From a virus (taxonomy: Duplodnaviria; Heunggongvirae; Uroviricota; Caudoviricetes), in IMG/VR virus record IMGVR_UViG_2526164669_000027: a DNA stretch of 48,145 bases; one strand, written 5' to 3'. The notes beneath the pieces are model-generated. The model was given only the letters and a program-made list of their open reading frames with translations, was not told the DNA's origin and ran no database searches. The position numbers and the translations under genes were made by a program. Positions 9,515-19,263 of the stretch are shown here, one piece after another (the stretch's first letter is position 1; each line of letters starts with the position of its first letter).

Positions 9515-9843
9515 CAGTTTACCACCTGCTCAAAATCTGCCGTTACAGTTACCCATAACGCACCAACGCTTGCCGACCATTTACGACAAACCACCCTGAC
9601 AGGTTTCCAGCCATAAGGTGGTGTCCACTGAAACGCTCTGACACCGCCATGTCGCACCAGAAAATCCTCCAGCGACTGATGTTCTCCTTTACGTATCCGG
9701 ATAGTCACACTGTAAACGGGCAATACATTATTCAGCCCTGCCGGTCGCCGCTGCTCATAGCCATCCCCCAGCTTTACCGTCAACACCTTCGGTTCCGATG
9801 CCACAGTCATATCAGGGCGAATTTTCCAGTGAAAAGTTTCCAT
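9514..9843 (-). CDS. M: minor tail protein M
   Basis: 109 aa between H and L; stop/start overlap with L. Confidence 0.85.
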   Translation of the reverse strand: METFHWKIRPDMTVASEPKVLTVKLGDGYEQRRPAGLNNVLPVYSVTIRIRKGEHQSLEDFLVRHGGVRAFQWTPPYGWKPVRVVCRKWSASVGALWVTVTADFEQVVN

Positions 9844-12800
9844 TACCGATATGCTCCGCTTAACTGACCACCATCACGGGACTGCTGTTGCATAAAGTCC
9901 GCTGCTGCTTTTTTCCCGAGGTCATAAACCACCTTCAGGGCAGCCGGACCTATCTGCCCGTTCGTACCATCGTTATTGATCTCGATGTTGTACTGCGGGG
10001 CAAACATCACCATACCTGAACCACCAATATCCGCCACAACACCCAGCCTGCCATCAGCACCACGACGCAATGGCAGAATGGCTTCAGGCCCCGCTTCTCC
10101 CATCACACCCGCGCCTTTTGCAAAAGCAAAAAACGTAGGACGGTTAACCACCGTGCCACTGTAGCGACTCAAATCAGCAGACTGATAAACACCACCATCA
10201 GCATTGGGCGTCACACTGGCAGTTGCTGCACTCCCCCAGCCAAACGCCGAACCAATCCCCTTAACTGCCTGCATCATGGCCATCTGCGACATGATTTTTG
10301 CCAGATCAGAAAGGAGCGAGGCGGTAAAAGATTTGAAGTTCAGTTTTCCGGTGGTACAGAACGTCGCCAGTGCATTACCTGCACTGTTAAATGCCGCTGT
10401 AAACATCTGCTCAGCGGTACCTGCCGCGTTATCCGCACTCTCTGTAAAATTCTGAAACGCCCGCATGGCACCGTTTTTCCAGTCTGCCTGCATCAGTTCC
10501 TGTTCCTGCCAGTAGCGTCTGTTTTCATTCAGTTGCCGGTTAAGACTGTCTGTCAGCATCTGCTCAGCATTCCGGTATTCATCTGTGCCGTATGTTCCTT
10601 TCTGCTTACTGTCACGCTCCAGCTGTTCCAGTTGCTGCTGGTATTTTTGTTGCAGACTGAACTGCGCCTGGTATCGCTGACGCTGTTTATCCCCCATCCC
10701 TGTCGTGGCGATATCCAGGTCATGTTGCTGACGCAGAGTCCGTTCCTCTTCCGCCAGCTGGCTGGCAAGCTGAATGGATTTTTTCTTAAGGTCATTCAGC
10801 GCCGTCTGCTTCTGCAGCTCCTGCTGTTTTGCATCCAGCAGCGTCAGCGCCTGAATCAGTTCATCCTTATGCGCCAGCACGCTTTTTTCATCTGCCGTCA
10901 GCTTTTTACCGGCTAAATCACTGATACGCTGCTGCAGGGCCAGAAGCTGCTTATGCGCTTCCGTCATTTTTTCCGTGGTCAGTCCCGCAGACTGTCTGGC
11001 GGCGGCGATCTGCCCCTCCACCTGCGCCTGCTGCTGACTGTACTGCAACAGCAACCGGGTGGCTTCATCATTGCGGTTTTCAGATGTTTTTTTCTTAATG
11101 GCTTTTTCGTAACGTTCATTTTCACGCTGTATCGCTGCGTCCCTGACCGCCTGGTCGGCGTACTGCATGGCATTGATGCGCGCAATTTCACGTTGATGTC
11201 GCGCCGCTTCCGTTTCATTCATCCGGTTCAGCGCAGCATTTTCAGCATTCCGGCGTTTCTGCTGTTCCTGATAATTTCGTTCAGCCTGCGCTTTTGCATC
11301 CTGTAAATCTTTCTGGCGCTTTTTCTCCTGAAGTTCATCAAGGCGTTGCTGGTCGTATTCCACTGTGGTGGATGCATTTGTCCAGGGCGATTTTTTCGCA
11401 CGCTGAATTTTTTCCTGCAGCGCCGCAATCTGCGCATCAAGGGAATCATTACGCCCGATATTCATGGCGGCATCCCAGAACTGCTTCCACCAGTCAGATA
11501 AGGTTTGCAGCGTACTGCCCAGCGCATTGAGATTATTATCAATATCAGATGTGCGTTTACCGGTTTCCTCTGCCAGTGCAGACATGGCTATCCGGGCGGC
11601 GTCACTGGTGCGCCCCTGCTCTCCGAGCACACGGATCTGTTCAAGCTGGGTGGCTGTCAGAAAATGCAGTTCATCATCCAGCGCCTTCGCAGCACTGACC
11701 GGATCATCCTTCAGCCGTTTAAACTGACTGATGGTGTCACTGACAGACTGCCCTACCGAGCGTTCCATCTGTGCGGCAGCTTTCGCCACCATACCAATAT
11801 CGTTACCGTGAAATGCACCGCTCCCCACTACCTGCGCCAGTGCCCCCGCCATGGCATGTTGCGTGATGCCATTACCGGAAAGATTTTTACTGAGCGCCCA
11901 CAACTGCCCGGCTGTCACACCGGCATAGTGTCCGGTGAGCTCAAGCTGCCGGTTAAAGGCTTCGCCTTCTTCCTGCCCCTCCATCCAGGCTTTACCCAGA
12001 CCAATAACCGCAGCAGTGATCCCTCCGATAACTCCCCCCACCGCCAGGCCTTTCGGAGTCATTAATTTATCAATCCAGCCGGCACGGTTAGCCAGGGTGA
12101 TCCCGGAGCCACGAAGCGCACCGAAATTACCACGCGCCAGTTCACCAATCATGACCCCCAGCTCCCGACGGGCTGCCGCACTTTTCAGTCCCAGCGAATG
12201 TGTGACCTTCCCGGCTTTTTCCATTTTGCTGATATACACCTCAGCCGCACTACTGACACCCAGCTGCGCGGCTTTTGCCCTGAGCAGCTCCGTGGATGAA
12301 AGATTCTGAGCGGATACCTGCTCCTTCAGCCGCCGGATAAAGGCCGTCTTCTGGCGGGCGGCGGATTCTTCAGCCTGAGCCAGCACGCGGGTTTTCGCTG
12401 TCACCTCAGAAATCAGGGCCAGATAATCCTGCTGAGCAATCCCGCCACTGTTTCTGGCCTGTCGGATCTGCTGCTGAATACGCTGTAACTCCTGCAGCCC
12501 CGCACTGGCCTGTTTTACGCTGTCGATCTGACGATAAAATGCGGCAGCCATCTTATCCTGCGCCGCAGCCAGCGCAGCCGCCTGAACCTGCTCCTCCCGC
12601 ATCTGACGACTCAGGGCCTCCATCCGCAGGCGCGCCCTTTCCACATCTTCCGCCAGCGAAACATGCCCCTGCGCATGCTTCACCACGGCCTGAGTCTGTA
12701 TCACCGTCGCGCTGGCAGCCTGTTTCTGACTTTCCTCAAACCGTTTCATACGGGCTTCGGCCCGCTCCGCCTCCCTTGCTGTACCATTCAGCAGATTTTT

Positions 12801-12875
12801 TACACGCGGAAGCTGCTCTTTAAAATCGGCGGTATCAATGCTTAAATCAATGACAAGGTCAGCAATCTGGTCCAA
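9843..12875 (-). CDS. H: tail tape measure protein H (1010 aa)
   Basis: Long coiled-coil-rich ORF with Gly-rich C-terminal region, downstream of G/T. Confidence 0.9.
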   Translation of the reverse strand: MDQIADLVIDLSIDTADFKEQLPRVKNLLNGTAREAERAEARMKRFEESQKQAASATVIQTQAVVKHAQGHVSLAEDVERARLRMEALSRQMREEQVQAAALAAAQDKMAAAFYRQIDSVKQASAGLQELQRIQQQIRQARNSGGIAQQDYLALISEVTAKTRVLAQAEESAARQKTAFIRRLKEQVSAQNLSSTELLRAKAAQLGVSSAAEVYISKMEKAGKVTHSLGLKSAAARRELGVMIGELARGNFGALRGSGITLANRAGWIDKLMTPKGLAVGGVIGGITAAVIGLGKAWMEGQEEGEAFNRQLELTGHYAGVTAGQLWALSKNLSGNGITQHAMAGALAQVVGSGAFHGNDIGMVAKAAAQMERSVGQSVSDTISQFKRLKDDPVSAAKALDDELHFLTATQLEQIRVLGEQGRTSDAARIAMSALAEETGKRTSDIDNNLNALGSTLQTLSDWWKQFWDAAMNIGRNDSLDAQIAALQEKIQRAKKSPWTNASTTVEYDQQRLDELQEKKRQKDLQDAKAQAERNYQEQQKRRNAENAALNRMNETEAARHQREIARINAMQYADQAVRDAAIQRENERYEKAIKKKTSENRNDEATRLLLQYSQQQAQVEGQIAAARQSAGLTTEKMTEAHKQLLALQQRISDLAGKKLTADEKSVLAHKDELIQALTLLDAKQQELQKQTALNDLKKKSIQLASQLAEEERTLRQQHDLDIATTGMGDKQRQRYQAQFSLQQKYQQQLEQLERDSKQKGTYGTDEYRNAEQMLTDSLNRQLNENRRYWQEQELMQADWKNGAMRAFQNFTESADNAAGTAEQMFTAAFNSAGNALATFCTTGKLNFKSFTASLLSDLAKIMSQMAMMQAVKGIGSAFGWGSAATASVTPNADGGVYQSADLSRYSGTVVNRPTFFAFAKGAGVMGEAGPEAILPLRRGADGRLGVVADIGGSGMVMFAPQYNIEINNDGTNGQIGPAALKVVYDLGKKAAADFMQQQSRDGGQLSGAYR

Positions 12876-13173
12876 ATCTCATTCCTCCCGATATACCTTC
12901 CCCCAGATGCATCAGCTCTTCATCCGTGCGTTCAGGGATCACCCTGTCATCCGTAACCAGACTGAAATCATCCGCCGGAATACGTTCACCGGACACCATC
13001 TGAACCATCAGCGACTTCAGTGTGGAAATCTGTGCATCCAGCCAGATATCCCCGAAACTCTGCTTCCGGAAGAAATCCCCCCATTCGCCCAGTTCTGACG
13101 CTGACATTTCTGATAACATCCGCCGCCAGTCTGCCCGCCGGAACTCACGGGCAAGCTGCATCACAAACTGCAT
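12859..13173 (-). CDS. T: tail assembly protein T frame (made as a G-T fusion by -1 frameshift)
   Basis: ORF in the -1 frame relative to the G terminus, no independent start; conserved lambda G/GT arrangement. Confidence 0.7.
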   Translation of the reverse strand: MQFVMQLAREFRRADWRRMLSEMSASELGEWGDFFRKQSFGDIWLDAQISTLKSLMVQMVSGERIPADDFSLVTDDRVIPERTDEELMHLGEGISGGMRFGPDC

Positions 13174-13181
13174 CTCCCGCG

Positions 13182-13601
13182 TCAGGACTTTTCCGGTGTC
13201 AGGGGAACCTGTTCACCGTTCTGAACATCACCGGTGGAGACCGGCATACCACTCAGGGATAAAACCAGACTGCCCCCGTCGCCAAGCGCGTCATAAGACC
13301 AGGTGTTTTTTACATCCTCATTCAGCGCATCCACATCCTGTGACGGGTCCGTATTCCACATTGACCGGGAAACCAGCCAGGCATTGATATCCATCCCCAT
13401 ACGCAGAAATTCAATCTGACGATCAGCCACCGGCATGGCATCATCCAGGGCGTCAAACTCAGCTGTCCGTTTCTGGACAAACGCCAGATACTCCACCCGC
13501 TGAAGTCCGGATAATTCCGTCAGTACCACAGACTGATTACCGTAGTTAAATGTGTCCTGTTTCAGAAACATGTCCCCTCCGTAAACAAAAAACCCCGGCA
13601 T
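13182..13601 (-). CDS. G: tail assembly chaperone G
   Basis: MFLKQDTF...LTELSGLQRVEYLA resembles lambda G; ends at a GGAAAAG-type slip site. Confidence 0.85.
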   Translation of the reverse strand: MPGFFVYGGDMFLKQDTFNYGNQSVVLTELSGLQRVEYLAFVQKRTAEFDALDDAMPVADRQIEFLRMGMDINAWLVSRSMWNTDPSQDVDALNEDVKNTWSYDALGDGGSLVLSLSGMPVSTGDVQNGEQVPLTPEKS

Positions 13602-13627
13602 ACCGGGGTAAAAAACAGACTGCCAGG

Positions 13628-14368
13628 TTAATCACCATTAACGGTAATACCGGCCACAGCAACCTGCGCACCACCCGCAGTCATCCCCACAATCGAGGTG
13701 CTGCCCGCTTTCACACCTTTCACCGTGGCCACCATGCCACTCAGCGTAACCGTGGCGATATCAGGAGATGATGACGCCACACTCACCGTTTTATCAGAAG
13801 CATCTTCCGGTACTGTGCTGAATGTCAGCGTCGTCGTTGCCCCCACCCTGACACTGGCGGAAACCGGCATTACTGTCAGCCCGGTCACCCCCACAATTTC
13901 AGTCCCCTCCTCAGCCAGATACGGACGCCCCACACCGCTGATTTTAACCGTACGGGTCATCACATCTTTTGACGTAATGGTTTTACCCAGCGAACTCAGC
14001 CAGCCGCGGAACACATCAACGGTACCGTTAGGGTATTTAATGCGGAATGCACGAACTTCACCGGAATCAAACAACTGAATCAGTTTTTTCTGTCCGCTGT
14101 CACCCGGACGCCAGGCCAGCGTCGCGGATGTATCACCAACAGATTTTTGCCCCTGAGTTGTCGTTTTCCAGTCAGCATTTTCATCATCGAGATAATCGTC
14201 ATCTTCCGCATCTGCAGTCATTTCCCCCGGCTGCAGATCCTTCACCATCGCGAGGCGCAGCCAGTCCGTATCTGACAAAGGATTCGCAAATGCGTCGCCC
14301 TTGCCGGTATACATCCAGAACGTCGTCCCCGCCCCTTTCATTTTTTCAAGTGGATTCGGTGTCGTCAT
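13628..14368 (-). CDS. V: major tail protein V (with C-terminal Ig-like domain)
   Basis: MTTPNPLEKMKGAGTTFWMYTGKGD... matches lambda V as recalled; start trimmed to the ATG at 14368. Confidence 0.9.
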   Translation of the reverse strand: MTTPNPLEKMKGAGTTFWMYTGKGDAFANPLSDTDWLRLAMVKDLQPGEMTADAEDDDYLDDENADWKTTTQGQKSVGDTSATLAWRPGDSGQKKLIQLFDSGEVRAFRIKYPNGTVDVFRGWLSSLGKTITSKDVMTRTVKISGVGRPYLAEEGTEIVGVTGLTVMPVSASVRVGATTTLTFSTVPEDASDKTVSVASSSPDIATVTLSGMVATVKGVKAGSTSIVGMTAGGAQVAVAGITVNGD

Positions 14369-17646: not shown

Positions 17647-19263
17647 TTACGGCATACTCATCAGCAGTTCTTCTTCCCCGTTCCCGGCAGTTCCGCCACC
17701 GGAAACGGCACTGGCGGCATGCTGTGCCATGAAGCGCTCAAAAAGTGTTACCTGTGACGGTTGCGATACTGATGGCGCAGCTGCCAGCAGCGTTTTCGCC
17801 TGCTCCACTGTCATTCCAGGTTGTTCAGCCAGCGCCTGTGCCAGTTTTTCGCGTCCTTTTGCTTCCGGCAACGCAATAATTTGATCGCCGGTACTTGCCG
17901 TACCGGTTGCCGGTGCCGCTGCCAGTAGCATTTTCGCCTGTTCCACCGTCATTCCCGGCTGTTCAGCCAGCGCCTGTGCGAGTTGTTCACGCCCTTTAGC
18001 TTCCGGCAACGCCATAATCTGCTCGCCGGTACTTGCCGCACCGGCAACCGGTGCCGCTGCCAGTAACGTTTTCGCCTGCTCCACCGTCATTCCCGGCTGT
18101 TCAGCCAGCGTCCGTGCCAGTTGTTCACGTCCTTTTGCTTCCGGAAGTGCCACAATCTGATCGCCTGTGCTGTCAGTACCGGCAACCGGTGCTGCCGCCA
18201 GTAATGTTTTTGCCTGCTCAACTGACATTCCCTGCTGACCTGCCAGCATCTGCGCCAGTTTTTCGCGTCCTTTCGCCTCCTGACAATTCAGGATCCCCAT
18301 CACGCGCTGATTTTCCTGGGACACCGCTTCAGCAACGGTGAGATTTTTTGTTGTCATCGTATTCTCCTGTGTAACAGAGTCGTTCAGAGCAGAAACCATT
18401 ACATCAACGGCATCTGCAGCATTAATCAGTTGATCAGCCAGGCCTGTATCAATGCCTGCCTGACCGTCATAAACGGCAGCCTCAGTATTCATCACCACCG
18501 CTGAACTCAGCCCCGTATAAAGTGCCACCTTGTCGACAAACATCCGGCGGGCCTCATCAATACGGAGCTGAAAATCCGCACGCACACCTGTCGGCAACGC
18601 CTGAATACTGTTGCCGTCAACCTTGTGCTGCCCGGAGTAAATCAGCGTGATATCCACGCCTTCCTGTGCCAGTTGTTTCTCGTAACTGGTGTGCGCCATC
18701 ATCACACCAATCGAACCAATTTTTGCCGTCTGCGTGACCAGCCGACGCGTACAGGCCGCCGCCAGCAACATGGCGGCTGAACAGGCCATGTCATTACACA
18801 GCGCCCACACGGGCTTCTGTTCCCGCAGACGGTAAATCATGTCAGCACAGTCAAACGCCCCGGCAGCCTGACCGCCCGGACTGTCGATATCCAGTAAAAT
18901 GCCGCGTACATCCGGGTCGTTCACCGCTGACTTAAGACGGGCAGTCAGACCGTCATAACCGGTCATACCGGAATATGGCCGCAGGGTACCCATTTTATGT
19001 ACCAGCGTGCCGCTCACCGGCAGAATGGCAATACCATTTTTCACCTGGTAACTCTTTACCGGACGCGGACCACCAGTCATATAATCGGTAACCGCCAGCT
19101 GCATACCATCGGCATCAAGCTGAACGGCCTGCTGCGGAACGGCAAGGCTGCCCGCCCCCATCTCCTTACCCAGTGCGCAAAAGAAAACCCGCGCATAGGC
19201 GGGTTCCAGTAAAAGCGGCTCATTAAATGCCATCGCGGCAATATGTGATAAATTACAGCGCAT
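17647..19263 (-). CDS. C: head maturation protease / scaffold protein C (S49 peptidase family, Nu3-like C-terminal part)
   Basis: N-terminus ..HIAAMAFNEPLLLEPAYARVFF.. matches lambda C; C-terminal part carries four in-frame 46-aa repeats. Confidence 0.85.
   Translation of the reverse strand: MRCNLSHIAAMAFNEPLLLEPAYARVFFCALGKEMGAGSLAVPQQAVQLDADGMQLAVTDYMTGGPRPVKSYQVKNGIAILPVSGTLVHKMGTLRPYSGMTGYDGLTARLKSAVNDPDVRGILLDIDSPGGQAAGAFDCADMIYRLREQKPVWALCNDMACSAAMLLAAACTRRLVTQTAKIGSIGVMMAHTSYEKQLAQEGVDITLIYSGQHKVDGNSIQALPTGVRADFQLRIDEARRMFVDKVALYTGLSSAVVMNTEAAVYDGQAGIDTGLADQLINAADAVDVMVSALNDSVTQENTMTTKNLTVAEAVSQENQRVMGILNCQEAKGREKLAQMLAGQQGMSVEQAKTLLAAAPVAGTDSTGDQIVALPEAKGREQLARTLAEQPGMTVEQAKTLLAAAPVAGAASTGEQIMALPEAKGREQLAQALAEQPGMTVEQAKMLLAAAPATGTASTGDQIIALPEAKGREKLAQALAEQPGMTVEQAKTLLAAAPSVSQPSQVTLFERFMAQHAASAVSGGGTAGNGEEELLMSMP
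17775..18310 (-). repeat. four tandem in-frame 138-bp repeats within gene C
   Basis: Marker GCCAG(C/T)A(G/A)CGTTTTCGCCTG recurs at about 17783, 17921, 18059 and 18197 (138-bp period); protein repeat EAKGRE(K/Q)LAQ..PGMTVEQAKTLLAAAP. Confidence 0.8.

Follow-up and report, generated by a model that had tools for sequence, protein, structure and literature searches.

The question raised by this locus is whether the overlapping tail genes G and T in the window, by which the whole 48,145-nucleotide stretch of viral DNA analysed here is meant, are expressed as two independent proteins or are joined by a programmed -1 ribosomal frameshift as in phage lambda. The lambda G/GT frameshift has been characterized (Levin, Hendrix & Casjens 1993; Xu, Hendrix & Duda 2004, 2013, 2014, cited in PMC5009743), its two products are made at a G:GT ratio of about 30:1 that is needed for tail assembly (PMC5009743), and such a ratio is known for lambda only (PMC5009743; PMC3296357). 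Judged from its sequence, the site in the window, which belongs to a lambda-like prophage of E. coli, is very probably a site of programmed -1 ribosomal frameshifting like that of lambda G/GT.

The genes around the overlap were assigned by Pfam domains, the reading frames were obtained by three-frame translation, and the features used below are the following.

Upstream, beyond V, minus strand: gene U (PF06141)
13628..14368, minus strand: gene V, major tail tube (PF16461, lambda TTP, E 7e-68, plus Big_2; PGAP coordinates)
13182..13571, minus strand: gene G, tail assembly chaperone of 129 aa (PF06894, Phage_TAC_2, E 3.6e-38), with start ATG at 13571, GGAGG 4 nt upstream of this ATG, and stop TGA at 13184..13182
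13182..13212, minus strand: G/T overlap of 31 nt, which is the shift window
13188..13194, minus strand: shift heptamer G_GAA_AAG, the sole in-phase A_AAG motif in the shift window
13171..13173, minus strand: ATG in the T frame, 15 nt after the last base of the heptamer and PGAP start of a separate 104-aa 'T'
12859..13188, minus strand: T-frame part of GT, 109 codons (PF06223, Phage_tail_T, E 1.5e-13), reading VLTREMQFVMQLAREF...GGMRFGPDC and then stop TGA at 12861..12859
9843..12875, minus strand: gene H, tape measure (PF06791, TMP_2, E 3e-47; PF09718, Tape_meas_lam_C, E 2e-24)

The gene order U-V-G-T-H on the minus strand, as given by the Pfam domains of the neighbours, is the order found in lambda. 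The two families concerned are named 'lambda tail assembly chaperone G' (PF06894) and 'minor tail protein T' (PF06223), and a modelled GT fusion matches both. The coordinates of G are the same as those of the gpG annotated by PGAP in E. coli genomes 99.8% identical to the window. ATG 13571 was taken as the start of G; a longer G ORF, from ATG 13601, begins inside a terminator-like hairpin. This hairpin, ACCCCGGTATGCCGGGGT followed by a T-run (13592..13609, minus strand), is located between the stop of V (13628) and the start of G (13571); a putative rho-independent terminator is annotated at the homologous spot in N15, Ayreon and mEp460, and the hairpin may lower the transcription of G, T and H relative to V. 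At the other end of the gene pair, the ORF of H starts with TTG at 12875 on the minus strand, which is also the PGAP start, with GGAGG 7 nt upstream and an overlap of 17 nt with the end of T. The overlap of T (or GT) with H at 12859..12875 suggests translational coupling. Elsewhere in the window, a tandem repeat was observed at 17780..18280, in the C-terminal half of a large ORF of 538 aa (17647..19263, minus strand) upstream of the head genes. It has a period of 138 nt (46 aa), 3.6 copies and 84% matches between copies, with units of the form '...GMTVEQAKTLLAAAP...STG(D/E)QI.ALPEAKGRE.LA..LAEQP'.

Relative to G, T lies in the -1 frame (T minus G frame = 2, mod 3). A TGA at 13215..13213 closes the T frame, which is open from 13212 onwards, and G ends with its own TGA at 13184..13182, so that any shift from G to T is confined to 13212..13182. 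The G-frame codons in this shift window are GAA CAG GTT CCC CTG ACA CCG GAA AAG TCC TGA, and the heptamer is read as (CC)G GAA AAG (Pro-Glu-Lys) in the zero frame and as GGA AAA G(TC) in the -1 frame. It does not conform to the canonical X_XXY_YYZ pattern, its bases 1-3 being GGA, and its YYZ half (A_AAG) is canonical. As a bare string GGAAAAG is not rare, with 11 occurrences in the window versus 7.0 +/- 2.9 expected. Of the codons in the window's long ORFs, 0.28% have an in-phase A_AAG, which gives a chance expectation of 0.025 for the nine positions available within the shift window. The 31-nt overlap contains no further in-phase repeat motif. CCC_C (13205..13202) was considered as a shift site and discarded, as it would give a +1 rather than a -1 shift and reads CCT_C in a 97% relative. 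According to the original prediction, T is entered from G around CCGGAAAAGTCC. This string was indeed found on the minus strand at 13196..13185, where the G frame reads CCG GAA AAG TCC and then TGA, and it holds the sole in-phase A_AAG heptamer. The range assigned to the site, 13170-13190, fits less well: the site is real, but only three of the seven heptamer bases lie inside this range, which mainly covers the G stop and the T-frame ATG.

The conservation of this arrangement was analysed with the modelled GT fusion as tblastn query against 50,697 phage records, of which 185 matched; among the matches listed, every one consisted of two pieces that lie in different frames. Additionally, 80 viral contigs, 77 bacterial loci (one genome per species) and reference phages were included. 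All intact loci, across dozens of genera, have T in the -1 frame relative to G, and the shift motif falls into one alignment column across all representatives. The predicted GT can be aligned over its whole length with its counterparts in lambda, N15, phi80, Gifsy-2, cdtI and Stx phages. G_GAA_AAG is found in the group of the window, in cdtI/mEp460/Ayreon (71% GT identity), in Gifsy-2 (51%) and in N15 and phi80 (35%), and the same column holds G_GGA_AAG in lambda (33% GT identity) and A_AAA_AAG in Stx phages (32%). The heptamer is thus unchanged across clades with diverged flanks, including many Enterobacterales prophages, and its column is kept in relatives down to about 33% protein identity.

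For a census of the junctions, 60 unique 72-nt contexts from many Enterobacterales genera were counted, uncorrected for shared ancestry, and copies of lambda present as contaminants in the genome collection were collapsed by this counting of unique contexts. G_GAA_AAG accounts for 49 of the 60 contexts, G_GGA_AAG for seven and A_AAA_AAG for one, and the remaining three are A_AAA variants directly followed by a TAG stop. The original prediction was right that the heptamer differs from the GGGAAAG of lambda; G_GAA_AAG is, however, the majority form in this family and no exception. On this count of sequences, it is G_GAA_AAG and not G_GGA_AAG that is the usual heptamer of the lambda-type G/T family. 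The codon before GAA in the 49 contexts is GCG, CCG, CTG, TTG, ACG or GTG, i.e. codons for Ala, Pro, Leu, Thr or Val with the third base always G. Moreover, Glu is always encoded by GAA and Lys always by AAG; in E. coli the Lys codon AAA is commoner than AAG (0.76 vs 0.24; PMC3296357). By this comparison of sequences, in which ancestry was uncorrected and G-ending codons are common in the hosts, the heptamer nucleotides, with the first base among them, appear to be kept beyond what the protein needs.

Several junctions deviate in detail. In Ewingella (L098), Kluyvera (L101) and one Providencia locus (L135) the motif ends in AAA and is directly followed by the G-frame stop, the variant junctions CTG GCA AAA TAG and ATG GGA AAA TAG being A_AAA with an adjacent stop, not A_AAG. 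Two other Providencia loci (L121 and L124) read G_GAA_AAG TAG. Junctions of the lambda type, with G_GGA_AAG, a 64-nt overlap and the same 38% match, were seen at loci L138-L143, L146-L150 and L157-L160 on short contigs of very low coverage (about 1) from the unrelated genomes of Neobacillus, Oceanobacillus, Kitasatospora, Shewanella, Pseudoxanthomonas, Paenibacillus and others, and they are almost certainly contamination with lambda DNA. Some cdtI-type relatives (L004, the L005 group and L021) were considered as candidates for an in-frame G-T and rejected: their slip site is intact, and the extra single-base indels that they carry lie at other places in G or T. These indels point to draft sequencing errors or decaying prophages.

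A lambda-type G/GT locus is recognized by two overlapping ORFs between the genes of the major tail tube and the tape measure, by a gpG homologue upstream and a gpT homologue in the downstream frame, by a -1 frame relation in which the two ORFs share a short overlap close to the 3' end of G, and by an in-phase shift-prone sequence within this overlap that is kept at the homologous position. At the level of sequence each of these features was found here. The conserved G/GT frameshift put forward by the original prediction is accordingly what the Pfam identities, the synteny, the -1 frame, the 31-nt overlap and the column-aligned heptamer point to.

We infer the slip itself and its role in assembly, both of which are described here by analogy and as a prediction. 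Most ribosomes on G would stay in frame over ...CCG GAA AAG TCC and stop at TGA, the product being the 129-aa chaperone G. In a small minority, the P-site tRNA-Glu on GAA and the A-site tRNA-Lys on AAG would both slip one base back to GGA AAA. tRNA-Lys would re-pair cognately, moving from AAG to AAA, and tRNA-Glu on GGA would keep its first and third pairs, with a G.U-type mismatch at the middle position, where the second-position G stands opposite U35 (the same point is made in PMC6924986). Translation would then start in the T frame by re-reading G13188 and proceed with GTC CTG ACG... to the stop at 12859. The predicted product GT, complement(join(13571..13188, 13188..12859)), would be 237 aa long and read ...VPLTPEK|VLTREMQF... 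across the junction. By analogy with lambda, coating of the tape measure protein H would fall to G and to the G part of GT, and recruitment of the tail tube protein V to the T part of GT, and neither G nor GT would end up in the virion.

That T is instead an independent gene with its own start, its overlap with G being incidental and a frameshift unneeded, is the reading implied by current annotation. In E. coli genomes 99.5-99.8% identical to the window, RefSeq/PGAP lets 'phage tail assembly protein T' start at ATG 13173, which lies 15 nt past the heptamer and gives a 104-aa ORF, and many phage records likewise list G and T as separate CDSs. However, the sole SD-like element at this ATG is GGGAG, which adjoins it with 0 nt spacing, and in the alignment the Met of the window corresponds to Leu in Gifsy-2, N15, phi80, lambda and Stx phages. 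The T-frame residues upstream of the ATG are kept back to the heptamer (K|V/A-L/F-x-x-E-M/L-x-F), which is itself kept including its synonymous positions. The start ATGs given for 'T' in other phage annotations differ and are non-homologous, as would be expected if no conserved start exists. Levin and coworkers reportedly found in 1993 that the T sequence of lambda is made solely as the GT fusion. An independent T is therefore considered very unlikely, and ATG 13173 is probably not a real start. The statement of the original prediction that T has no start of its own was too strong as worded, in that this ATG exists, but the spacing of 0 nt, the Leu in the relatives and the preserved upstream residues speak for its substance. 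It is exceedingly improbable that the two frames go back to a frameshift mutation or a sequencing error in a once-continuous GT, as in a decaying prophage, or that they are bridged by slippage of RNA polymerase on the A run. Additional indels at other places in G or T are seen in a few relatives (the L004, L005-group and L021 loci mentioned above), but the -1 arrangement with a G-frame stop is present in every intact relative, including lambda, N15, phi80 and cdtI, and the window is 99.5-99.8% identical across many complete genomes; as functional phages universally have this arrangement, a mutation or an error in sequencing is excluded. Productive transcriptional slippage usually takes place on homopolymer runs of about 7-9 nt and is implausible on the run of just four A residues present here.

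Given a frameshift at G_GAA_AAG, the slip might involve tRNA-Lys on A_AAG only, with tRNA-Glu not re-paired and the first G of the heptamer idle. Such -1 shifting on NNA_AAG is established for the CGA_AAG of IS1222 and of Bacillus cdd, where the tRNA of the 5' codon matters (PMC5009743), the second-position mismatch of tRNA-Glu on GGA is in line with it (PMC6924986), and one Morganella locus (L104), outside the tally of 60 contexts, has A_GAA_AAG. Against this, the base before GAA is always G in the 49 unique contexts, although these are uncorrected for ancestry and come from genomes in which G-ending codons are common. Since the third base is G across codons for five amino acids, re-pairing of the P-site tRNA on GGA would appear to be under selection, and the invariant first G speaks, as far as sequences can tell, for a slip of both tRNAs and against one by a single tRNA only on GAA_AAG. 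The single-tRNA slip is regarded as plausible but unlikely.

Stimulatory elements of the putative slip were searched for on both sides of the heptamer. Upstream, no core SD 4-mer (GGAG, GAGG or AGGA) is present at -17..-6 of the heptamer in the window. GAGG located 8-12 nt upstream is found in 33 of 65 contexts and in 12% of the control windows, being frequent in the cdtI clade and in some others. An SD-like upstream stimulator was nevertheless rejected, as the window has just AGGT at -16, the contexts with GAGG are phylogenetically redundant and the linker is rich in Glu (GAG codons). Downstream, the window folds no better than shuffled sequences (z of -0.09 for 125 nt and -0.75 for 60 nt), and z ranged from -1.61 to +0.67 for the window and four relatives at these two lengths. 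RNAalifold on nine representatives (-6.2 kcal/mol, covariation term -0.14) gave no conserved or covarying structure, and the consensus structure begins at least 29 nt downstream of the heptamer. A 5-bp hairpin, UCCUG-ACG-CGGGA, was dismissed as a stimulator, as it follows the heptamer with a spacer of 0 and is absent in Gifsy-2. In the Rfam scan of 12700-13700 no family matched, the V-G terminator hairpin giving just a sub-threshold chance match. The elements of stimulator-dependent cassettes of the dnaX or IS3/IS911 type, an SD-like element 6-17 nt before and/or a hairpin or pseudoknot about 5-9 nt after the heptamer, were thus not found at this site. G_GAA_AAG is here neither a canonical X_XXY_YYZ heptamer nor a stimulator-dependent cassette of the dnaX/IS3 type. 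The lambda shift site is likewise not known to need a defined stimulator.

The efficiency of the proposed slip has to be seen in the light of what is known about A_AAG. No other tetramer is as -1-prone in E. coli, because the sole tRNA-Lys (mnm5s2U34) pairs better with AAA than with AAG, and G_GGA_AAG and A_AAA_AAG are highly shift-prone heptamers (PMC5009743; PMC4066793). Bare A_AAG-type tetramers without a stimulator gave 0.147% in vivo versus a background of 0.112% (PMC4066793). In the reconstituted E. coli system of Peng et al., G GAA AAG was used as a 'less slippery' control and gave mainly the 0-frame product in vitro (PMC6924986), which is explained by the second-position mismatch that tRNA-Glu needs on GGA. 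The slip in the window is probably a tandem slip of low efficiency, of a few percent or less, a magnitude that would suit the needs of the system, and its efficiency may be below the roughly 4% of lambda, as the heptamer is non-canonical and no stimulator was found. A heptamer that is in the majority, with an apparently selected first G and no detectable stimulator, stands against its role in vitro as an unfavourable control that engages essentially one tRNA, and three speculative ways of reconciling the two, taken together as quite unlikely, can be named. tRNA-Glu (mnm5s2U34) may tolerate the middle mismatch on GGA far better in vivo than the in vitro work suggests; an unrecognised stimulator may be involved, for example the conserved ...T-P/A-E-K stretch of the nascent chain or the stop close by; or the GT:G ratio may be much lower in most lambdoid phages than in lambda. 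Furthermore, the G_GAA_AAG site might be more sensitive than that of lambda to the thiolation pathway of the host, since both tRNAs at the site carry a 2-thiolated U34.

A frameshift of the lambda G/GT kind, as predicted for this locus, is already known from other phages and is nothing new in kind, and the analysis adds nothing on tail assembly or on the mechanism of frameshifting. Its value lies in annotation: RefSeq/PGAP and most phage records split the locus into 'G' and a truncated 'T' from an arbitrary ATG, and the predicted GT fusion of 237 aa is the corrected product. Within the papers searched, no discussion of G_GAA_AAG in phage tail genes was found, and its majority status is useful for frameshift-prediction tools that are restricted to X_XXY_YYZ motifs.

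[quoted passage not shown] Genes 14/15 of N15 and G/G-T of phi80 (NC_001901, FN582354) have the identical GGAAAAG at the homologous position, which their GenBank records label as 'slippery sequence for -1 translational frameshift', and the phi80 record carries a joined gpG-T CDS. The differences are a protein identity of 35%, a 0-frame stop that is located five codons downstream, and the 3' context CCC versus TCC in the window. The closest named relatives are cdtI/mEp460/Ayreon and Salmonella Gifsy-2, at 71% and 51% GT identity, respectively. They share with the window an identical 15-nt block, GCCGGAAAAGTCCTGA or CCGGAAAAGTCCTGA, and a stop one codon past the heptamer, whereas the linker before the site has diverged. 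The Gifsy-2 record names T 'part of G+G' frameshift hybrid protein', and G and T are separate CDSs in most records of these phages, as they are in RefSeq for the sequence of the window.

From lambda itself the window differs in the heptamer, G_GAA_AAG versus G_GGA_AAG, and consequently in the P-site tRNA, which is tRNA-Glu with a middle mismatch after the slip in the window and tRNA-Gly with a change at the wobble position in lambda. Moreover, the G stop lies one codon past the heptamer versus five in lambda, and T has 109 codons versus 144 and is without the C-terminal duplication of lambda. The two have in common a site without an evident downstream stimulatory structure, homologous G and T domains (PF06894, PF06223) with GT proteins that are 33% identical, the order V-G-T-H, the -1 frame relation, and a shift site that is column-aligned between them, codes for x-Lys and has A_AAG at its end.
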